A program made the translations under genes and the position numbers. A stretch of 64,000 bases of DNA from Sarea resinae. Lineage: Eukaryota. Shown piece by piece: positions 27,677 to 42,500 of this stretch (within the stretch, counting starts at the first letter, position 1; each line of letters starts with the position of its first letter). Below the pieces are notes generated by a model. That model searched no databases. It was given only the letters and a program-made list of their open reading frames with translations, and was not told the DNA's origin. The DNA lies in NCBI GenBank assembly GCA_026026165.1, contig JAPEUD010000043.1, positions 62,001 through 126,000 of the forward strand, in the 5' to 3' direction.

Positions 27677-29393
27677 ATGGCGTCCCAAACTCCGGCCGTT
27701 GTCATGGACAAGTGAGTGCTTCAGTTCGATCGCGCATTTGAGCATGGGCAGACAGAACCCATGCTGGTGCCATTGGGGGCTTGACTAATTTTCCTTTCTC
27801 TTGAAAGCGGTACGGGGTACTCGAAGCTAGGTAGGCCTCACAGCATGCGCCCAACAGACCAACGCTGCATGTGCTGACCACCTCTCTCGCAGGTTTTGCT
27901 GGAAATGATTCTCCTTCCTTTGTCTTTCCCACCGCAATTGCAACAAAAGGGGCCGGGGGTGGGGGCGCAGGCTCAGGATCGGGTCGACCAGCTATCGCGA
28001 ACAAACCGTCTTTTTTGACAGGAGGTGCGGGACCCGGCGGGCACTTGTCGGCAAAGCGGGGCACAGAGGATCTCGATTTCTTCATAGGAGATGAAGCATT
28101 GGCGGCGTCCAATGGACCTGGTCAGTCAAATATGAATGACTCTATTACATACGCAGAATTAAGTACTGAATTCTAGAGCAGGCTATGGGCTTCATTATCC
28201 CATACGGCACGGCCAGATCGAGAACTGGGTAGGGATCTAGTTATCCAGCGATTTGCTGCTTTGCCTTGTTAACCATCTTAGGATTACATGGAACGCTTTT
28301 GGTCGAATTCCATATTCAAATACCTCCGTGTCGAGCCAGAAGACCATTACTTCCTCCTTACTGAGCCTGTAAATCCCCCTGTTCTCTATCTCGTCCTTAA
28401 TGTCTTGCTGATAATATTTCTTCAGCCTCTCAACCCGCCAGAAAACCGCGAAAACACCGCCGAAATCATGTTCGAGTCCTTCAATTGCGCTGGTCTCTAC
28501 ATCGCTGTGCAAGCAGTCCTTGCTCTAGCTGCCTCCTGGACCTCCTCCAAAGTCTCCGACCGCTCCTTGACTGGCACGGTCATCGACTCCGGCGAAGGTG
28601 TTACGCACGTCATCCCCGTCGCCGAAGGATACGTCATCGGCAGCTCCATCAAAAGCATCCCCATTGCCGGCCGCGACTTAACGTACTTTGTGCAATCCCT
28701 GCTCCGCGACCGCGGTGAGCCAGACTCTTCCCTCAAGACCGCTGAACGGATAAAAGAAGAATACGGCTACGTCTGCCCGGACATCGTAAAGGAGTTCTCG
28801 CGTTTCGACCGCGAACCGGAGCGTTTCGTCAAGCACAACGTCACCTACGCTAACGGCCGCTCTGTCACCGTCGACGTCGGCTACGAGCGCTTTCTCGCCC
28901 CCGAGATCTTCTTCAACCCGGAAATCTACTCCTCGGACTTCCTGACCCCCCTGCCCACCATCGTCGACGGCGTCATCCAGACCTCCCCCATCGATGTTCG
29001 AAGAGGCCTTTACAAGAACATTGTGCTTTCGGGCGGCTCCACGCTTTACAAGGACTTTGGTCGCCGCTTACAACGCGATATCCGACATCTCGTCGATGCG
29101 CGCATCCGTGCTTCCGAGGCAAGAAGTGGGGGTGCAAAGAGCGGTGGGCTCGAGGTGCAAGTCGTGACGCATAAGAGACAGCGACATGGACCGTGGTTTG
29201 GTGGAAGTTTGCTGGGGCAAACCCCTGAATTCAGAAGTTATTGCCATACCAAGGCCGAATATGATGAGATAGGTAAGCTCGGCCTCACACTTCTCCTTTC
29301 TGCTCTAGACGTATGCTAATGCATACCTCAATGATGATAGGACCCAGCATCGTAAGAAGATTCGCCTTGTTGGGCGGGCCAGGAGGATCGTAA
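27677..29393 (+). CDS. ARP3: Actin-related protein 3 (Arp2/3 complex)
   Basis: Exons 27677-27711, 27808-27830, 27893-28120 and onward give [27 protein letters not shown]; also [24 protein letters not shown] and C-terminal [17 protein letters not shown]. Confidence 0.98.
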
Positions 29394-29970
29394 GGGCTGT
29401 GTAGATGAAACTGTGACGGGACAGAGAGAATGACAGCCTGAGACGAAGAACGAGGACTACGTGTAGACCAGCTACTCACCTACCCTTTTAGTCGAACTGC
29501 TACCTTGTGTAGTTTGATTTGTCAAGGCGCGGATGTTTCTCTTCTTCTTTGCTCGCCTGAATTAAATTTGCTAGATCAGGGACCCAAGATCATAAATCAA
29601 ATACTATTCACCGACTTCCGTACTCGGAAACGTTCTCGAATTTGTCTTGCTTCCTATCAACTCCATTACAGACGGTACTAGGTACTTCATGCTTAAGTAT
29701 CATTCGTGCCATGTGAAACCCGACACTACCCCAGACGGAAGTTACCGACCATTAAGCTTAACCTCAGTTCATCTATGTGAATGACATGACAGACAGTTCA
29801 TGTCCAACCTAGAATCCATCGAAAGACTCATTTCCAGGCTATCGATCATCATTATCACAACCAACCTTCTCTGCAGTATTCAGATTCCAGTCTAGAATAT
29901 CTTTCACATACTTGGGTGTCGTTCATAGGAACCATCCGACGTCCCCGGATCAATCATCATCATCATCATC

Positions 29971-30721
29971 ATGGCGGACGCCGATGCGCCCCAGCCAACT
30001 CAAGATATTCAGCCCAAGGTCGAGCCGAAGGAGGAAGAACTCGATGCCTCTGTAGAAGCAGACATTGATATGGAGGGAACGACGAAGCCCGATCCTATGA
30101 ATTTGGATGGAGCAGGTGATGACCACCCCGCGTCGGGGCCAGGGATCGATCCGGTTGCCCCAGCTCCTGACCCCCGCATACCGACCAAGAAAGACGCGAG
30201 TTTGAGGGAATTCCTAGGAAAGATGGATGAATATGCTCCCATAGTAAGCATGAGACAATGTCTCGGCCGTTGCGAATGTGGCTGACGATGCGACCTTGTC
30301 TTAGATTCCTGATGCGGTCACAAACTATTACCTCACCAAGGCCGGACTACCCCCACCGCCTCAGACATCTACCCAGTTGGCCCGCCTTCTTGCACTTGCC
30401 ACACAAAAGTTCATTGCCGATATCGCCGCGGATGCTTATCAGTTCTCAAGAATTCGATCATCCAATACATCTAATAACCCCATGGGAGGTGCTGCTGGAT
30501 TCCAAGCAGGTCAGCCCGCTGGTGGTGCGGCAGGCGCACAAGGTAGCAAAGAAGCAGGAGGAGCTCAGGGCAAGGGTGCTGTTCTAGGTGTCCAGAGACC
30601 CGGATTTGGCGGTGGAGGACAGGGCGGGCAACAAGGGCGGACAGTACTGACGATGGAGGATTTAGGTATGGCTGTCGGCGAGTATGGTGTCAATGTCAAG
30701 AGGGGCGAGTTCTATCGTTAA
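29971..30721 (+). CDS. TAF10: TFIID/SAGA subunit Taf10
   Basis: [25 protein letters not shown]...[25 protein letters not shown]...[20 protein letters not shown]; intron 30244-30304. Confidence 0.97.
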
Positions 30722-30984
30722 GGTCCTAGTTCAAACCAAAGGCTCATGGCCACGGCGGCGCAGGTGATCTGGGAAGGGTGTCATGGCTGGAGTTAAAAGG
30801 CGCGGTCGAGTATCGAAGGTCTTGGACTGGGGTATCGTTTCATACAAGGTGCCAGATATGGGATTGGATATGCTGTTATAGAATTGATTCGAAGATCGTC
30901 GGGTACGGTGGTAATTTACAAGTTATAGAAACATTTCTGAACGCCGGACCATATGCGTGGGATGTACAAGCTAAAGACCGCCCC

Positions 30985-31573
30985 CTACTTATTCTTCGTC
31001 TGTTTATACGTGAAACGCTTCCTCGTTCTGTGAACATAGCATTGATCAGCCATTTGTCGAGAATGAGAATGATCTTTATCTAGACGGCAATCGCGACAAA
31101 TTTCTCGATGAAGCCAACTGTCAGGTTCGATAGCACTTACGCGGAGAATTCGCCAAGTTTATGTCCCACCATGTCCTCTGTGACTACCACGTCGTTGTAG
31201 ACCTTCCCATTATGCACTTGAAACTTCAGGCCGACGAAATTTGGTAGAATGGTGGCACTGCGCGCCATTGTCTTGATCGGTGGGACTCGCTCGCCAGCTT
31301 TCGCTCGGACGATGGGAAGCCTGGGTACTTTAGTGAGCCGCATTCGTAACGGGCGCAGTCATCGTTGAAGGTAAGAAGATGCCAGCAGAAGCATCTGAGG
31401 ATCTTTCATGCTGGTAGGGAAGTTTGCGGTGCTGGCTGAACAACTTACGGTACGATGTGCGGTCCTGTGAGTCGATGTCAATTAGCTAGGAGAATCATTT
31501 TGAACGCACAAAGCAAGACGCCCTACTCACCCTTCCATACTGATCGCGCCAGAAGCGCTCTTGTGGGAATCAT
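30985..31573 (-). CDS. RSM19: Mitochondrial ribosomal protein uS19m
   Basis: Exons 31573-31531, 31464-31449, 31320-31141 and 31027-30985 give [19 protein letters not shown]...[20 protein letters not shown]...[16 protein letters not shown]. Confidence 0.96.
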
Positions 31574-31673
31574 TGTGCTGGAGCTTGAATGTAGTGTTCG
31601 CAGTCCACAGGCAAGAGCGGAAGTGATGGCAGAATGGCAAAATATTGAAATGATGACTAAGCGAGTTTGACCG

Positions 31674-31684
31674 TCGCGTCTCCC
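31674..31684. promoter_or_regulatory. MCB-like (ACGCG core) element in the RSM19/MRE11 divergent promoter
   Basis: TCGCGTCTCCC lies ~185 bp upstream of the MRE11 ATG; the identical 11-mer lies upstream of DAD3. Confidence 0.4.
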
Positions 31685-31868
31685 CCACCAGGCGCCTGTG
31701 AAGTTGAGGTCCCCGGAGAGTAATATCTAACCTAATTCCTGCTGTATCATGATGCTATCATATGAGATCCTGATGTCAGACTGCTAATGGAGAAGGAGCT
31801 GTTAATATTGTCCGCTGAGGAGCTCTTTCTTTGACCATTCCTACGCAGGATTCTCCAGGCCGGTCGAG

Positions 31869-34455
31869 ATGCCGCAACTTTCAGGTATGTGCTCTATTTG
31901 GCGCGAGCTCTCTATCAGAGCTCTTTAATTTTGTCTGCAATCGATCTTCTTTGGGCCCTTTTGCTGATTCATTCGTCATCTAGCTGCAGATACCATCCGT
32001 ATCCTGGTGGCAACAGACAGCCATGTCGGCTACAACGAAAGGGATCCAATCCGTGGTGACGATAGCTGGAAGAGCTTTCACGAGGTTATGTGTCTGGCAA
32101 AGGAGCGTGATGTTGATATGGTATTGATGGCTGGAGATTTGTTTCATGAGAATAAGCCTTCAAGGAAATCTATGTATCAGGTCATGCGGTCATTGCGAAT
32201 GAACTGCTATGGGGAAAAACCATGCGAATTGGAGATACTGAGCGATTCAAGTGAAAACTTTCAAGGGTATGACGGATCCCCCAAGTTATCAGCCACGCAG
32301 ACTTACTAAGATGATATCTAGTGCTTTCAATCACGTCAACTATGAGGATCCAGATATCAATGTTGCGATTCCTGTCTTCTCGATACATGGAAATCATGAT
32401 GACCCGTCTGGGGTATGTATAGATTATGTCTTGACCGCTCTAAACCCAACGACTCATGTATGCTAGGAAGGCCACTTAGCTGCGCTCGATTTGCTGCAAA
32501 TATCTGGGCTGCTCAATTATTACGGGCGAACTCCCGAAGCCGATAATATTGTCGTCAAGCCCGTCTTATTGCAAAAGGGGATGACAAAGCTTGCCTTGTA
32601 CGGCATGAGCAATGTGAGAGATGAGAGGCTCTTCAGGACATTCAGAGATGGAAAAGTCAAGTTCTACCAGCCGAGCACGCAGAAGGATGACTGGTTCAAT
32701 ATAATGAGCGTCCATCAGAATCAGTATGTCGAGCTAGTCGACGACCGGTATAGATGCAATTGCTGAACAAACTTCTAGTCACGCACATACGGAGACTAGC
32801 TACCTGCCCGAAAACTTTCTTCCAGAATTCCTTGACCTTGTGGTGTGGGGCCACGAGCATGAATGCCTAATCAACCCACGTTTAAATCCCGAGATGTCTT
32901 TTCACGTCATGCAGCCAGGCTCCTCTGTTGCTACATCATTGGTACCAGGCGAGGCTGCTCCGAAACACGTTGCGATTCTCACGGTGACCGGTCGAGACTT
33001 TGAGGTTGAGCCCATCAGATTGCGAACTGTTCGGCCTTTTGTTATGAAAGAGATAGTGCTAGCTCAAGAAAAAAAGTTCAAGAATCTGGCCAAAAAGGAG
33101 AACAATCGCACCGAGATCACACGAGAGCTAATGCAGATCGTGGATGAGTTAATCGAGCAAGCGAAAGACGAGTGGAAGGAGGCACAAGATAGGAGAGATT
33201 TAGAACAAGGACTGCAAGCACCGCTACCTCTAGTTCGGTTGAGGGTTGAGTACACCGCGCCTGAAGGTGGTCGTTTCGACTGTGAAAATCCCCAGAGATT
33301 CTCCAATCGTTTCGTTGGAAAGGTTGCTAATGTGAATGATGTGGTTCAATTCTATCGGAAGAAAACAGGGGTCACCAGTACGTAATCCCACGCTTGAATG
33401 AAGATCTATCTCACTTACTGATGTTATTGAAGGGAGAGCAAAGGATGGTGCAGAACTACCCGAAGAATCAATAATGGCACAACTTTCTATTGACACCGTC
33501 AAGGTTGAAAAGCTCGTCAGAGAATTTCTTACCGCTCAGTCGCTCACCATACTGCCCCAGAATTCTTTTGGGGACGCGGTCAGTCAGTTCGTAGATAAAG
33601 ACGATAAACATGCGATGGAGATGTTCGTTAATGAAAGTCTCACCAATCAAATCAAGCATCTGATGGCATCTGATGAGGTGGATGAAGATGAATTGCACAA
33701 TGCCATGGATCAGCACCGTTCCAAGCTTGAGGAGCTGTTTGCCGCTGGCCATCTGAAGAAAGCAGTAAGTCGAATATAACAATCATCTCCTTGCGTCCAC
33801 TAAGCCAGCATAGAAGCGAGCCAAACTAAAAGCTAAGCCTGATAATTGGGACTCGGACTTGGATGGAGAATGGGGCGATCAGCCGGGCGCCCTCATACAT
33901 TCCGAATACGAGGCTGAAGAGGACGACGATATTGTAGCTGCACCTAGGACGGCATCAGCTGCGCGTGGTCGTGGTAAAACAATGTCTACGAGCCGTAGAA
34001 CCGCGCCAGGGACAAAGAAAGCCCCAGCTGCCACAAGAGGTGTCCGAGCGAAAAAGGTCGTGCAGGAAGAAGACGAGGATGATGATGTCGTAATGATTGA
34101 CGATGATGATGACAACGATGATGAGCCTCCTGCTAAACCTTCTCGTGGTGCTAGCAAGGCTTCGACAACCAAGGCAACGCGGAGAGTCGTGTCTCCACCC
34201 CGACGCGCCCCGGCCAGAGCAGCTACGACAACCGCAGGCCGGCAAACCAGACTTAACTTCTCGCAGCCAGCATCGCAGGTGAGCCAAGCCAATGGTAAGG
34301 GGAAGAAGATCCAGGAACTGGTAAAGTCAACGAGCCCTCCGATGCAAATTGGACAGTTGCTAATTTTTCGAAAGAGTGATGATGAAATATCTGATGATGA
34401 CGACGCCTTCGAGCCACCTCCACCTTCCGGTCGATCTTCAAGGTCCCGAAGATGA
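31869..34455 (+). CDS. MRE11: Double-strand-break repair nuclease Mre11
   Basis: Phosphoesterase motifs [26 protein letters not shown] and WGHEH; capping domain PLVRLRV and NPQRFSNRF; first exon 31869-31884 with several GT-AG introns. Confidence 0.98.
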
Positions 34456-35597
34456 TGTTAGCCGTAGGTACTGATATGCTTGTAATAATGTCATTCCGGC
34501 GTCATCATCGGGAGCCCAAAATAGTAAAGGAAGCACACCGTGGGCTGATCTTTTTGCTTCGTCGGTTTATTATGCTGAGATATTAGACCAACTCTTCGAT
34601 TTCATTTAGAGGAGACCCAGTCTAAGTCAGGGTATCAATATCCCTTTTCATGTCTTTTCTGCGCGCCTTGCAAGTGATGACATGATGGATAATTAGCCAA
34701 GTGAAAAATCCTCTAATCTGACTCCCCGATCCTGTCCAGTCATGACTGGATGACAGCACTCATCTCTGGGTGTGAATCATTAGAGTTGAATCATTCTTAG
34801 GTCGATGGCATTGCTCAATGGAAGCCGTGCTAATCCGACTATTGATGGCCATGAAGATGGAGATTGCTGATGATCTAGTAACAGCGTATGGTTTTAAGGG
34901 GCAGGCTTGACAGCAGGAAGGGTATAGAATGAAAGATTCTGGGTCTGGCTTTGATTTAGCTATTAAGGAGGGCAAAACGTTCAATTGTGAGTTCACAGGT
35001 GCCAATATCCGAGGGAAGAGGAAGGTAAACAATGGAAGCCCACTCTGAGATCGCGAGAGAAAAGGGGCTACGGTATGGCAAAGATATCAGGTCCTTACCC
35101 TCATGAGCACATTTCGTTGGCCCTCACAAGAGCTCACAGCGCATGATGAATGAGTCCGAAGTCACAGAGTGCGAGGAAAGTGAAGGTGCGGAATGAGTGA
35201 GTGACTGGGTCACTCTTTCCTGTTTAGATGCGTGCGTCGTCCAGCCGATCCGCGTCTCTTCACGACACCCCAGAATCATCGCGATTTTCTACTTTCGTAC
35301 TGTCAACAACTCGCACTCGGCACTTCACGTCTCGATCATCACCGCGGCGATTGCAAACGACTCAGCATCTTCCGTTGCTCTGTCTCTCTGATCTTCGAGG
35401 TAAGTCGATGACTGTGGTTCGTTTTGACTCTTCTCCTTTGCCACTTCTACCCACAACATAGTCAAGATACGTTCGTGTCTGCTTCTTTGAGCTTTGAAGG
35501 CGCGACTTCAAGAAGTCAAATTCAGATCCCCCATCACATCCCTAACACGAGTCAAGCACCTCCTTTGGGCTTCATGATGCACTTGTCTTCTTCAGCC

Positions 35598-38500
35598 ATG
35601 GCTAATAGCAGCTGGACCCAGCAGTTCTCTGCTGGTGTTTACTCAAACGAACGTGACGACGACGAATCATCTGAATACTCATTCTGCAGGACGCCCTCCA
35701 GCGACTCCAGCTCAGGTGGTGGGCTTTTACTCGTCGATATGGCATCTCCATCTACCGGGTCGAGTGGCCCTGCTCTCAATAAAACCGAAAACCAACACAT
35801 CTATGGCATCGATCAGCTCTTGGAGCTTGGTAAGGATATCGGGAAATTCGATATCAATGTTTCCAAGTTTCTCCCAGCCGCTTTCAAAGGTGAGTGAAAT
35901 CGATTAGGATCTTATATCCTGAGACTGTTCATGGTCGCTTATTTACCTCACTTGACGACTTTCTTAACACACTCTTGTCCTTTCCTAACATGTCTCTCCT
36001 ATCACGTCCCCTAACACCGTTCAAACGCCATTCTTTCTTCGGCAGTCTTATCCCATTCGCATATGTCAGATCGCTTCTTTCTTTAGTCGTGCAGATGTTG
36101 CCAGTAGTATCGACACGCTTCCAGAGCCAGCAAATTTCAAGGCCTATGTTCTCCCCCTGGATAAAAAGCAATATCTTGCATCTCAAGCTCAGAATCCAAA
36201 GCTAACTATTCAAACTTAAGAGCAAGTGATCAAGCCTACAACAAAGGCCGCTCAGGCTACCAACCCCTCTGATCTAGATCAATATGGTCTGACGCAAGAA
36301 GACCAAGCACTCTTTCGTCGAGTTTCGAACGGTACTGAATCCGGTTCAAAGCCTCAGGAGGATCCGAAGTTCGAAGAATTCAAGAAACGCGTGGCATCTC
36401 CTCCAGACCAGCGTGTGACGGCGGGCGGGCGCATTGTTCCTGCCGGCAGCCAGCCCCCGATTCAAGCTGCGAGGTTGTCGTTCAACGGCGGAGAGCCTCC
36501 AGCAAACCTGGTGCCCGTCCCCATAGGAGGATTTCCAATTGTCGGCCCTGCTCCTCCGTTTGTCTCGGCTCCCATCCAAGCCGTGCCTAATGGTAGCATC
36601 GTGAACTTTGGAGGGCAAAACTACGTTCTCTACCAAGGCATGCCTGGTGTGATACCGGGGCCTCCCATGCCACCACCACCACCACCCCCTCCAATGGGCT
36701 TCATGCCTTATCCGGCACCATTTGGGATGCAGACCACTCCAATGGGACCACGTCCAGTAATGATCTCTGATCCGGAGTATGGAATGATTCGTATTCACGA
36801 AGAAAGCCAGAAAAAGCAAAAGGACGCTTTACAACGCGAATATCAACATATCCAAGATCAACTTAAGGACATGGACAAGCATTTGGCGCGTTATCGAGAA
36901 CAGCTGAGTGGTGAGGAGCAGTGGCGTCTGACTAGTCAACGTCGTCAATTGATCACAAATCAGGATCAAATCCGTTTAGCTCTCAACGGGCTCAATCCGG
37001 TTTCTACTTCGGGTAATCAAAATGCTGGGCAACGTGCATCGAGCTCTGAAAAGCCTCGTCAGTTCCAACCGGTCCGGCAATTTTCACAGCCACTTGTTGT
37101 TCATTCAAGCATTCAGAATGAGAACGTCAATTATTGGAATGGAGCTGCCGTCTTGAATGGTCCTGGACCGGCTCTTCAGCAAGCTGCTGCCCCAGGCGCT
37201 GTTCTCCTTCCACCGCCCACCACAAAGCCGAGGGTCGTATATCAGGCCATCGAGCGCGCATGCGAGTCGAAGGAAGAGCTCGAAGAAGCTTGTCGTCAGT
37301 CCCGAGAGAATACGTGGGTCTATGGGACCTCCGAATATGACCCCGATGATCTTCGGTTTTTCTATCAACAAGGTACGGCACCTTTGCCCTGCGATAAGCT
37401 GTGGGCCGCCTATCATCAAGACGCTACATCTTTACCCAAAGATCTCTTTGGAAAGTTAATTCAAGAGGTCTATGTGGTGGCCTGCGATGAAGATGGCACT
37501 CCTCGATTGCCAGCTGGATGCAAGGCATACCTAACCCAAGAGGTTCCAAGCGATTCTTCGGAGAGTGCTAAAACTGATCCACCGAAGACCGTATGGTGTG
37601 TTCGTTTCCCGGACAACTCCAAGGTTGAGGTCCTGTCCGGGTTCGACACGTGGAATATTTGCGGCATAAATCCCCGCTGCTTTCGGGCTACTAGTGCGGC
37701 TCGTGAGCTGGCAAAGCAGACCCGTGAAGCTTACTTTTCTAGAATCACTGCCGCTGCCGAGGCGGAGAAGAAAGCTAGATTGGAGCGTGAAGCGCAGGCC
37801 GTCGAATTCTACAAGGCTGCATTTGGCGATGAAGACTTGAGTTCCGAATCTCAACATCCTCTCTCCAACGCCAGCAACCACGGACAGAAAAATACAGGTC
37901 AGACTCCGAAGTCGACCACTTTGGATCCAACGACGCCAGAATGGCAGATTTCGGGTTCGACTTCAAACTTTGCTCAGAACGCAGCTGCCAATAAGCACAA
38001 CTCATTCCACAACGGTGCCCTGTATCAGAAGCCCAACGGCGGTACCACCGGCAGTACAAGCTCTAGCGCCACGATGCGTAACGAGGATGATAATGCCGCG
38101 AGTGGCGCTGCAGGCCAAATGTCTAGTAATACCATGAGCAACATCTCAGGGGCCAAGTGAGTACTCCATTCAGCCCGAGTCTGCGTTGACACTGTCTCTG
38201 TACCTTGGACATCAACTAACAGATGCTTCTGCAGGAACTTCCACAATCAGGAGGCTCAGCGTGGCTTCTTGCAAGCAATGCTTAAAGATCCTCGGTATTC
38301 AGCCAACGCCGTTAAACAGGATTCTCTTCCGAGGGTCGTCTGTCAGCCACGAAGTGGTATGGAGCCTAAAGTCCGTGATTTTGCCATCCAACCTCACGAC
38401 GGAAAGCTTCAAGCCAGTAATCAATCTTCATGCTCGAATGAGCAGTATCCAGGCCACGGACAAGAGCACGCCTCTCCAATCTTGAACAAGGCTGGCTATT

Positions 38501-38748
38501 CTATCGCCGGTCTTCCTACGCAGGCTGCCGGATACTTTTCCTCGTTTAACTTCAACGGTGTGCCAGGAGGCCCTTTTGCACAAGCTCGCCGCCTCACCAT
38601 CAACAATGAGGCTTCCGTCAAGTGTGGCAATACTTCGAGCAGCGCTGGAGAGCGTCATGTGCCTGTCCCGATGACCCTTCCAGCCACGACGTACGCAGTA
38701 CAAGCTCCTCAGATTCAGGACCAAAACCAAGGTCAGGGCCAGAATTAG
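35598..38748 (+). CDS. Large, mostly disordered hypothetical protein with candidate eIF4E-binding and PAM2-like motifs and a coiled coil
   Basis: GCCATGG at 35598 (upstream in-frame ATGs at 35574 and 35577). Exon 35598-35889, intron 35890-36220 (GCTAAC branch), exon 36221 to ~38157, a short intron, and a last exon to TAG 38748. The frame is preserved across both junctions. Confidence 0.8.
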
Positions 38749-39459
38749 AACGATTGCCGTCCGGAGATGACCGACGAGCATAAGAAGTGGAACGCGGCCA
38801 ACTATCACTGAATCGAGCTGTGACTGAGTCGTGATAGAAGAGAATCGAGGAGGAACAAGGTGAATTTTCGATACAGAGAGAACTGGGTTGCCTTCCGCCT
38901 TTTTGAGCTATGAACTTTTGTGCCTTCAATACCACCTATCAATATGGGATGGCAACATTTGTCTCTTTGGTATGAAGACTCATTCTTTTTTGTCATCGAA
39001 GACGATCTTTTTCCTTCGGGTGTCTTTTTTCTCTTTCCATTCGATGCTTGCAGAAGCACTGTCGACAGTATTGTTATAGGACACTGGGGTGTGATGACTG
39101 GGGAATGAGCATAGCGACGCAGCGTGATGGGTCCGTTTTCTCTCTTCGTCTTTTGAGGTGTACGTAACCTTAGCTACACGCTTCCGTCCTAGTCCATATG
39201 TTCATGATCCGACCTCTTCTCTGCCAAACCCGAGCAATGCGCAGAAATTCCCATAGCCTCGTACGTAGATGAATGAATCGATTTTCTTTTTTGTCCCCTT
39301 TTGCTTACATGCCGCCTTCTTCTCGGTCCATGTGACCCCGTGAACAATGTCGAGTATAGAGAAGGTAGACTCGTGGGATCAAGTGAAGGTCCTGTGGACA
39401 GGTTGAGGGAAGTGAGATCAAGGACGCCGTAGAAGAATATATCTTCCTCCTCCTTCCCT

Positions 39460-39520
39460 CCCCCCCCCCCCCCCCCCACGTGCGCTATCTCGTCGTTGGT
39501 TGGGGGGGGGGGGGGGGGGG
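39460..39520. repeat. C18 / G19 inverted homopolymer pair
   Basis: C-run 39460-39477, 24-nt spacer, G-run 39502-39520. Confidence 0.9.
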
Positions 39521-42500
39521 TCTTTTACTTACTCACTAATGATGATATAGAGATAGGCTGGTAGATAGAAGGGACAGGTAGGTAGGTAGGTGAGTAAGGC
39601 TTAGGTAAACAGGTAGGTGAGTAGGCCAAGAGGTAGGTAGGGAAGTAGGAGGCTAGATAAGGTAGGCAGAGTAGAGTAGGTCACTTACTGACTTGCTTTG
39701 TTATTATAGAATCTAAGACTTATTGACGTTGTTTAGTGTTTGTGTTTGTGTTAGAGGTAGAGATGAAAGTAAGGTAGAGGTGAAAGTAAAATTCGAGAAA
39801 GAGAAAACAGAAACAGAGTAGTCTAAACAAAGATATATAGAATAGTAGAGCTAGAGAAAGCGAGTCTACTCTAAAAGACTCTCTTGATTATTATGATCAC
39901 GCACAGCTTTAGTATTTAACATTGTTGTTTATATTACTATCACCAAGGTAGATAACATCGTATATCTTATTTAACTATCGACTAACTATCTCTTTCTCCT
40001 TTTTTCTTGCCGTTCTTTTTTCTCTCTCTTATGTGTGAAAACCGATGAAATGTTCGCTTTTTCTTTCTTGGATTATATAAAGAAATCGCGCAGGACAGGA
40101 TCCATTAATAGAGAAGAGAAGAGGGGAGAGGCGAGAGCATGTGCTTAAACTTAGGGGTTTTTTCTGGTTTGAAGTTTGTTGCTCTTACACAGTATGTATG
40201 TAGGTAGGTATGTAGGTAGGTAGGTAGGTAGGTAGGTAGGTAGGTATAGGGGGCTATCTAGGGGAACCTCGGAAAGCTATAAAGATAGTTAGGTGGGTAG
40301 GTACTAAGACATCCAGAGGCTGACCCGAGGATCCAATGCGATCTCTATTCTCTAGTAGTGCGATAGCTGGCCACCTACTCTTAGTACCTAGGTAAGGTAA
40401 TTACATTTACTTTCCACAGACCCGGTTGTCTCGAAGATCTGTACGAAGACGCAGGCAGGCACTCTGCTGACTCTGCTGACTCTGCTGACTCGCGGATCCA
40501 GGCCGGTGTCCAGTACGTTGGCTGTCTCGCCGCCGCTGCAGGGAGGGAGAGCGAGGTCTGGAACGTCGCGAATGAATGAGAGAGAGAGTTTATTAGGTAC
40601 TCCGGAGTAGATAGCTGGCTAGGTAGGTAGGTAGGTACTTCAGTAGTAGCAGTAGGTGTGGACGTTACGTAGATGGTGGTGGCTCCATATGATAGGATAC
40701 GAAAAGATATGAAACGATAGGATACGGTACGATACGATATAAACAGACCGCCACAGAAAGGGGGATCCAAGACCAGATTCGCTTTTTCACTATATTTACC
40801 TTTTCCTGTGGTGGGGGATTGTCGGCCATGTTCTATTTATAGGACCGGGGCATGTGTGGATGGAAAGGCATTTCCTTGTTCTTGGATGGATATCAAATTT
40901 GTGTGCAGTTGATTATGGATAGAAGTAGGTACAGGGGTGCATATATGCATGCGGCTCAAGAGTCGAGAGTTGAGAGTCGAGTCGAGCGTCGAGTATGGCT
41001 GGCTGCATGGATGGACGGATGCGACGTCAGGCTTGCAAGTGCGGACAATGAGCGTTGTTGTTTTCTGTTGACCTTGTCTGATTGTGTGGATTTTGGGGCA
41101 CGAAAAAGAAAGGGAAGTCTGGGCGCGCCTGGAGGCGGGCGGCGCTGCGACGCTGGCGTGCATGTGCATGGTATGGTATGGTAGGTAGGTCGGTCGGTCG
41201 GTAGGTAGGTAGGTGCCTGGTGCATGCATACACGAGGGAAGAGAAGCGGAAGTGGGAGTGTGAGCTGGAGATTCGCACAGTAGACGAGAGGGTAGGGGCT
41301 CTGATGTACGAAATCGTAGACGAGTAGGTGAATGGTTAGATTAATGAGACTGCGAGGTTATCGATTGAGTGGGGGGGGGGGGGGGGGGGAAGGGAGCAGT
41401 GCGGTTTTGCGGTTTCTATGCCGCGGCTGGGAGCACGGAGTAGAGAGGGGTATCTAAGGTTAGAGAGGAAGTAGGCAGCGAGGAGAAGAGGGCGGGAGAG
41501 GTTTGAGGCTTCAAGATGACGTTGGACAGGGACTGATGTATGGTCACAAAAGATGGTGCTCTTGGAAGGCCGAGTGTTTCTCTTCTCCCTCTAGGGTTTC
41601 GAGAACGACGATGATGGACCCGTCGTCCCACTGCTACCCGGGACGAGACACAGACTATGGGGTTGTGACGTCAAACCACGATATTCACCCGAGACTGCTG
41701 GAGACGCGACACAGGATCGACGGAGGGAGTGCCGGTGCTACGGCGTGGGTCGAGTCGAGGGTGGAGAGCGTACGGAGGATGAGTACTCCAGTAGGTACTG
41801 AGACGTTCGAGCTTAGCAGAGCAAGGGAGATGCCGTGGGTAAAGTGGAGGTGGACTGGCACGTCGAGTGGAGTTGGGTGGTCCATGATATCTCGCGATGC
41901 GAACTGATACGGGCGATACGTAATTGCGGTACTCTGAGTCTACTGACGGGAAGTACTCCAAGTCCCGAGGCATCTAAGGCATCTCTCCTCTCATCACCCT
42001 CCCGGAAGCAAGGCACCGTGTACTGAGTATATCACCAGGAGCATACGGAAGTACTATGAGGATGACCAAGCACGCCCAAATTGTTGAGGGCCAAGATCAC
42101 CAAGATCACCATTGATGTCGATTGCCTGATTGATTGACTGGCTGACTGACTGACTGGCGGAGTGTCTGATCGATGGCATGCATCCCAGCATCGATGCCGT
42201 GCCAGCTCAAGGGACCGAGTACTCGAGCAGATGTCCTTTGGCCAGGTGTTGCACGTACCCGACCGGCTGGCTGGCACGGGAGGTACCGACTCCCCACGTA
42301 CTGAAGTACTATGTACTACGTACTGGCGTCCGACCCCTGGCTTCCACGTTGACGGCGACACACTTGCCGCTCGTCTATCTCCCGTCGGCCATGAGAGAGC
42401 AGGTTTCGTGCTGCCCTGGCCGGACATGATTCTTGATGCAAACATGCAAATGGGGGATATGCGGTACGCTATGTACGAAGTACCTCGCTAGAGTACCAGG

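Follow-up and report, generated by a model that had tools for sequence, protein, structure and literature searches.

A probable eIF4E-binding scaffold family of filamentous ascomycetes with an atypical member in Sarea resinae

The stretch of DNA analysed here, hereafter the window, comprises 64,000 nucleotides of the Sarea resinae contig JAPEUD010000043.1 (positions 62,001 to 126,000, forward strand), and carries on its plus strand, between 35598 and 38748, a gene for a hypothetical protein of 913 residues. Alignment with its relatives placed this protein, as a diverged member, in an uncharacterised filamentous-ascomycete family whose hallmark is the near-invariant block RVTAGGRIVP. Its N-terminal part bears a canonical eIF4E-binding motif, which is kept in relatives and was modelled on eIF4E together with a second hydrophobic segment located just behind it. 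Taken together, these results indicate that the family is real and conserved and probably an undescribed fungal eIF4E-binding scaffold, of which the Sarea copy would be an atypical form, devoid of the motif for the poly(A) side. An earlier note on this DNA had proposed a translational regulator joining cap and poly(A), and every motif that it quoted was found in the sequence where it had been placed.

Conservation of the eIF4E-binding motif

Homologue searches returned 44, 11, 15 and 184 matches, 120 of the last 184 being listed; low-complexity words crowded the results of the profile search, and lichen fungi those of the motif search. The resulting pool contained 184 proteins with the RVTAGGRIVP signature, which formed 77 clusters at 60% identity. 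Named members among the matches listed came from lichen fungi, Aspergillus, Penicillium, Fonsecaea, Sphaceloma and Xylona, and the classes to which we assign them below are presumed. No Sordariomycete or Leotiomycete name and no orthologue named from Neurospora, Fusarium, Magnaporthe or A. nidulans appeared among the matches listed, many of which were unnamed. The Sarea protein formed a long branch in the family tree (a quick FastTree of 285 trimmed columns, midpoint-rooted and built without P0018, which makes no claim on the order of events), and the nearest partner found for it was a partial protein of Xylona heveae (23% identity, E 2e-21).

The motif Y-x4-L-phi, where phi is a hydrophobic residue, is located at 35802-35822 on the plus strand (residues 69-75, with Y69, L74 and L75), overlaps a helix predicted at residues 71-80, and is followed by a hydrophobic patch at 35847-35885. 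It arose somewhere in 25% of 5000 shuffles of the Sarea protein, and within the first 161 residues in 4.7% of them. A motif of this kind was present upstream of the signature in 54 of the 184 pool proteins, representing 26 of the 77 clusters and spread over the tree, and its density among 170 proteins was about 17-fold higher upstream of the signature (50 in 18,481 residues) than downstream of it (24 in 146,896 residues). Positions outside the search pattern were also kept, namely Ile at +2 (49/54), Leu or Ile at +8 (48/54) and Arg or Lys at +9 (26/54), p20 and Eap1 having a Lys at this last position (PMC6061780). The Tyr and Leu on whose conservation the earlier note had staked its proposal are thus maintained in the relatives that bear exon 1, and the canonical motif that characterises 4E-binding proteins is conserved among the orthologues, except in the models of one seven-member clade. 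Longer gene models of A. terreus, P. brasilianum and F. multimorphosa contained the motif in all three cases while the shorter versions missed it, although the F. multimorphosa model is close to a sequence already in the pool, leaving two independent cases. The Eurotiomycete versions also had the downstream hydrophobic pattern and the exon boundary of the Sarea gene. Judged by sequence comparison, conservation alone separates signal from chance here: the eIF4E motif, the RVTAGG block, a helical hairpin and an FLxxMLK motif stand out by it, and not the Trp-type PAM2 and poly-proline stretches described below.

Modelled complex with eIF4E

Residues 62-106 were modelled with ESMFold2 on L014, a spliced fungal eIF4E from a metagenome record (Pfam IF4E, E 1.7e-54), used as a stand-in from a fungus other than Sarea. 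The complex scored 0.81, versus 0.49 for the best of three controls; the score mark applied was reached by 51 of 78 solved versus 2 of 108 mismatched pairs from microbes and, among eukaryotic pairs, by 39 of 65 versus 2 of 126. Runs, in which alignments were unused, shared at least 55% of their contacts, with a partner pLDDT (predicted local distance difference test) of 58-62. Y69 and L74 made the most confident contacts, placing the canonical helix on eIF4E's dorsal side. Residues 83-88, 91-92, 96 and 99-101 were also in the modelled interface, which includes the lateral pocket; they belong to a linker and putative non-canonical eIF4E-binding segment at 35844-36231 on the plus strand (residues 83-101), which is split by intron 1 and whose hydrophobic pattern is aligned in relatives. 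This second, lateral-surface segment is a prediction that may reflect memory of solved complexes.

The residues contacted in the stand-in eIF4E included H17-P18-L19, V51, W55 and L116, together with F27, V45, I46, I57, N59, N60 and I61, and the dorsal and lateral residues named in the available text on the Chaetomium eIF4E-eIF4G complex (PMC6061780) correspond to them at +30 numbering. The check by complex modelling that the earlier note had put forward therefore gave a bipartite complex, albeit with a stand-in eIF4E and with solved look-alikes in existence. What the model displays is likeness to a bipartite 4E ligand, not binding; on the modelling and the conservation together, we nevertheless consider it likely that the protein binds eIF4E.

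A PAM2-like motif in the family

A PAM2-like motif, [LF]-[NSD]-[PVA]-x-[AS]-x-x-[FWY]-x-P, was found in 71 of the 77 cluster representatives versus 0.32 in shuffles, and weak Pfam PAM2 matches were obtained in 7 of 30 and 11 of 31 family members (best E 0.0023). It accompanied the 4E motif in 52 of the 54 proteins bearing the latter, the exceptions being the Sarea protein and that of A. terreus. Further relatives without it were P0005, P0011, P0013, P0053 and P0176, and therefore the motif would have been lost more than once. A conserved PAM2-like motif is thus a property of the family and not of the Sarea protein. The bridge between cap and poly(A) imagined in the earlier note is plausible for the family, through a different site from the one it pointed to, which the Sarea copy lacks.

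Other conserved modules

According to AlphaFold2, 625 of the 913 residues of the Sarea protein had a pLDDT below 50; the ordered parts were helices at 71-80, 146-155, 438-501, 589-631 and 749-760, a beta-meander at 215-244 and a hairpin at 282-352. The usual order of elements in the family, whose proteins span 650-1400 residues, is 4E motif, signature, beta-meander, hairpin, PAM2-like motif, helical domain, P-x-T-P and FL-x2-ML-K-S-P.

The RVTAGG block is the most conserved part of the family, more so than the 4E motif. With a preceding helix it forms the near-invariant signature SP-x3-RVTAGGRIVP at 36370-36441 (plus strand, as are all features in this section; residues 148-171), so that what had been noticed as an isolated, conserved-looking motif is a family hallmark. 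The four-stranded beta-meander (36571-36660, residues 215-244) was predicted at a pLDDT of 61-81, and of 93-94 in the relative P0040, and was aligned in Lecanoromycete relatives. The poly-proline tract at 36661-36702 was unaligned in relatives and is no conserved family feature; a GYF-ligand role had been suggested for it, and it found no echo in the family, where the PPG-phi pattern expected of such ligands occurred in only 11 of the 184 pool proteins. An antiparallel helical hairpin, foreseen at about 36790-36990, was located at 36772-36984 (residues 282-352) with a pLDDT of 92-98 and the conserved pattern L-x2-LDK-x2-A..R..L..D. From 37240 to 37821 (residues ~438-631), alignment points to a diverged copy of the helical domain of the family, which is of about 110 residues and contains cysteine; this copy has a long helix and an extension common to Xylona heveae. 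The helical domain reached a pLDDT of 90-97 in P0040, and was mostly below 60 in the Sarea protein save for two helices; in P0040 the meander, hairpin and helical domain all folded at a pLDDT above 90. Finally, a short amphipathic helix, FL-x2-ML-K-x-P, is encoded at 38263-38301 (helix 749-760). This motif, quoted by the earlier note as FLxxMLKDP, is conserved where the last exon of the relatives has been modelled (34 of 184 pool proteins).

When two models were compared by fold with the PDB, only generic helical hairpins came up, none at E <=0.001 (best Z 7.9). Because hairpin matches dominated the output, these comparisons say little on whether the beta-meander and the helical domain, so far matched in no database, are new folds. 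Sequence searches of the PDB yielded no match with the first family profile, one designed coiled coil (E 0.68) with the second, and only ankyrin-repeat noise with the motif peptide, and neither the full-length protein nor the P0036 helical domain had a usable match in the ESM Atlas. No MIF4G/HEAT region was found in Pfam scans of the protein and family members or in the AlphaFold2 models.

Proposed mechanism and alternatives

On the conservation and the modelled complex, we lean towards an eIF4E-binding scaffold that would compete with eIF4G and repress or store mRNA; should eIF4E indeed be bound, repression or storage would be the likely net effect. As modelled, the N-terminal helix, whose conservation is observed, would engage the dorsal side of eIF4E, and the lateral hydrophobic pocket would receive the segment that follows. 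Since these modelled surfaces are those of eIF4G, as solved eIF4E complexes indicate, eIF4G would be excluded, and because the protein has no MIF4G domain it could not bring in eIF4A. Most members may also hold Pab1 through the PAM2-like motif located behind the hairpin, which is conserved in relatives, giving an eIF4G-free cap-to-tail complex that would silence or store the mRNA. The Sarea copy, its PAM2-like site lost, would work from the cap side only, like p20, Eap1 and 4E-T. Target choice could depend on RNA-binding or decay factors brought in by the RVTAGGRIVP block, beta-meander, hairpin and helical domain, and the protein may be regulated at proline-directed phosphorylation sites.

A broader proposal, which we regard as possible but rather doubtful, is that the family is the missing 4E-BP (eIF4E-binding protein) of filamentous ascomycetes and has an architecture that is new. 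One chain would grip eIF4E and Pab1 without MIF4G in a silent, closed-loop messenger ribonucleoprotein, RVTAGGRIVP and two small domains would recruit an effector, and lineages would switch this logic by dropping PAM2 (Sarea, Aspergillus terreus) or the 4E motif (a Dothideomycete-like clade). The family provides a defined candidate, open to mutation, in moulds amenable to experiment (Aspergillus terreus ATEG_02120, Penicillium brasilianum), making cap-dependent translational control in filamentous fungi directly testable.

Several observations weigh against a repressive eIF4E-binding scaffold. Lichen fungi predominate in the pool, which is also redundant, and the regular expressions were composed once the sequences had been seen. 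No Y-x4-L-phi was present in 130 of the 184 models: 95 of these begin less than 90 residues before the signature, as do 9 of the 54 motif-positive proteins; 22 show an exon-2 start after unrelated or partial sequence; and the remaining 13 comprise five that look truncated, one with Asn at phi and seven forming the Dothideomycete-like clade, which has a different N-terminus. We infer that most of the motif-less models lack exon 1 through truncation. The clade (P0021, P0026, P0030, P0041, P0062, P0065 and P0185), whose members have a Tyr-type PAM2 and no match to the helical domain, reflects either a missed first exon or a real loss of the motif. The Sarea protein is among the 20 of 54 proteins that have Gly at position +9. 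As to the model, the control score of 0.49 came from an unrelated partner, the eIF4E was a stand-in, solved look-alikes exist, so that the pass may be memory, and peptides or disordered chains lie outside the calibration of the tool. On the poly(A) side, Ser replaces the consensus Asn in 61 of the 71 family sites, Glu is mostly missing, and the Sarea protein has no family PAM2 at all. Lastly, excerpts of a review (PMC7139794) present yeast p20 and Eap1 as neither simple nor general inhibitors, p20 stimulating translation in lysates, and hence repression is not implied by eIF4E binding.

This behaviour of p20 and Eap1 lends some weight to the idea that the family binds eIF4E, and Pab1, and stabilises or activates chosen mRNAs through an eIF4G-independent closed loop that guards the cap and favours translation. 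The joint occurrence of cap-side and tail-side motifs in 52 of 54 relatives would fit it, but there is no MIF4G/HEAT region that could recruit eIF4A or eIF3, the modelled site overlaps that of eIF4G and the Sarea copy does without PAM2. We consider activation unlikely, though a serious competitor. The likeness to 4E-binding proteins could also be incidental, the N-terminal helix binding an eIF4E paralogue or an unrelated partner, and not a class I eIF4E, in a scaffold of general use in signalling or RNA granules. Short as it is, the motif occurs often, as the shuffles indicate and as its presence in about 15% of yeast proteins, given in the consulted portion of PMC7139794, confirms; the most conserved element is the RVTAGG block and not the 4E motif; the Dothideomycete-like models do without it; and filamentous fungi have several eIF4E paralogues (PMC8244596, in the text available). 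Against this, Eurotiomycete, Lecanoromycete and Sarea sequences keep Tyr, Leu and phi invariant at the 4E spacing and have another hydrophobic segment after them, the model puts both segments on known eIF4E surfaces, and a second translation-factor motif co-occurs, so that we judge another partner to be less probable still than activation, and retain the eIF4E-binding scaffold.

The remaining alternative concerns the Trp-type PAM2-like stretch at 37909-37947 on the plus strand (residues 661-673), which the earlier note had likened to the Trp-type PAM2 of LARP4. The best window of the Sarea protein against the family PAM2 profile was equalled by 264 of 300 shuffles, and the Trp-site columns align, in one of two alignments, with a family Y-x-E..P-x-T-P motif (13 of 60 strict versus 0.37 by shuffle), owing to which a proline-directed phosphosite is an alternative for this stretch; it seems more likely to be that P-x-T-P site or a product of chance. 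That it is a working PAM2w replacing the lost family motif, so that the Sarea protein would bridge cap and tail after all, appears the least probable alternative of all: its Leu/aromatic spacing fits LNxxAxx[F/W] (available text of PMC7356810), two relatives with Trp-type and seven with Tyr-type sites imply that the family tolerates other aromatics, no more than 4.5% of shuffles yield the loose pattern and Sarea lacks the family site, but the stretch carries Thr in place of the Ala, where the same source regards a bulkier side chain as strongly disfavoured on steric grounds, scores -10.2 bits against a profile, favouring Phe-type sites, whose 71 family sites score at least 15.5, lies behind the helical domain where the family site lies in front of it, and has no counterpart in the nearest relative, Xylona.

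Gene structure and neighbourhood

The spliced product matched letter for letter the Sarea resinae hypothetical protein KAI9832269.1 (M1819_004447), and a Pfam scan of the three exons gave no family above the cut-off. The gene lies between MRE11 and a long intergenic stretch, and its parts are all on the plus strand. Exon 1 (35598-35889, residues 1-97) holds the eIF4E-binding motif and ends at a phase-1 GT donor, relatives breaking at the equivalent position. It is followed by intron 1 (35890-36220, 331 nucleotides, GT..AAG, with a CTAAC branch-like site about 19 nucleotides 5' of the acceptor), exon 2 (36221-38156, residues 98-743), intron 2 (38157-38234, 78 nucleotides) and exon 3 (38235-38748, residues 744-913 and the stop codon). 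Three more in-frame combinations of acceptors would alter the length of the product by 2-4 residues.

The in-frame TAA at 36217-36219 was considered as an edited or read-through stop and rejected: it is inside intron 1, and the AAG acceptor yields the annotated protein with a junction that matches the relatives. Just before it, 40 open codons of intron 1 (36097-36219) run in frame up to this TAA abutting exon 2, and a coding status for them was unsupported in relatives. The annotated AAG acceptor is of a rarer type than CAG, and a CAG acceptor is found within the intron at 36043-36045, with a CTAAC branch-like site 35 nucleotides upstream; if used, it would bring a stop at codon 111, giving a substrate for decay or a 110-residue peptide with the eIF4E motif only. 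Upstream of the gene (35400-35597), an intron in the 5' untranslated region is suggested by a GTAAGT donor at 35400 together with a CTAAC near 35543, and the annotated start is preceded, 7-8 codons upstream, by two in-frame ATGs.

Further upstream on the same strand (28282-34455) are ordinary housekeeping genes, namely an actin-family gene, presumably Arp3-like, TAF10 and MRE11. Downstream, at 39455-39521, a long C run faces a long G run about 20 nucleotides apart, capable of forming a hairpin, and is followed by a TAGG-type simple repeat. The AT-rich and TpA-rich region at 39500-40500 (TpA/ApT 1.6-1.9, (CpA+TpG)/(ApC+GpT) 0.6-0.8) bears, by its composition, the signature of a repeat relic mutated by repeat-induced point mutation.

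Comparison with known systems

There is a close likeness to p20/Caf20 and Eap1, which (PMC6061780, PMC7139794) are mostly disordered, have no MIF4G and bind with an N-terminal Y-x4-L-phi helix and, after a linker, with another hydrophobic segment that lies against the eIF4E lateral surface, the arrangement modelled here. Several relatives carry the motif at most five residues from the start, as p20 does. In contrast to p20 and Eap1, the family proteins are larger and contain three folded modules of small size and, as a rule, a PAM2-like motif. The available text of the 2020 review (PMC7139794) reports p20 and Eap1 from Saccharomycotina only, filamentous ascomycetes being unanalysed there. We found no description of a 4E-binding regulator of filamentous ascomycetes in the open-access literature, and nothing on this family under its RVTAGGRIVP signature or among 4E-binding or PAM2 proteins of filamentous fungi. 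None of the p20/Caf20, Eap1, 4E-T/Cup or 4E-BP1-3 Pfam families was among the matches for 30 and 31 members, no direct profile comparison being made, and there was no PDB sequence match to them.

With the PAM2 and PAM2w proteins LARP4 and LARP4B (PMC7356810) and Ustilago Upa1 (PMC9249222, PMC11572963), as far as the accessible text of these sources goes, the relatives share L-[SN]-P-x-A-x-x-F-x-P with its Leu, Ala and F-x-P anchors. The Sarea protein differs from them in that it has no PAM2 site, its Trp stretch breaks the Ala position, and it has no La module or FYVE domain.

Like the metazoan 4E-T/Cup, from which our model of storage or repression is borrowed, the family would be an eIF4E-binding scaffold of large size and little order, in which short conserved motifs are dispersed; it differs in giving no Pfam match to any 4E-T family among the same 30 and 31 members. 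4E-T has DDX6-, CNOT1- and LSM14-binding motifs, which were not identified in this family, and 4E-T is not known to have a PAM2.

As for eIF4G, most family members could likewise join cap and poly(A) factors. The protein is, however, not an eIF4G, as judged from the lack of a MIF4G/HEAT region; the link of the family to Pab1 would be a PAM2-MLLE contact, whereas that of eIF4G is an RNA recognition motif contact. The eIF4E surfaces occupied in our model are the same as those of fungal eIF4G in the Chaetomium eIF4E-eIF4G complex (PMC6061780, available text). If the proposal is true, a 4E motif combined with PAM2 and without MIF4G would be an unusual means of holding both ends of an mRNA silent.

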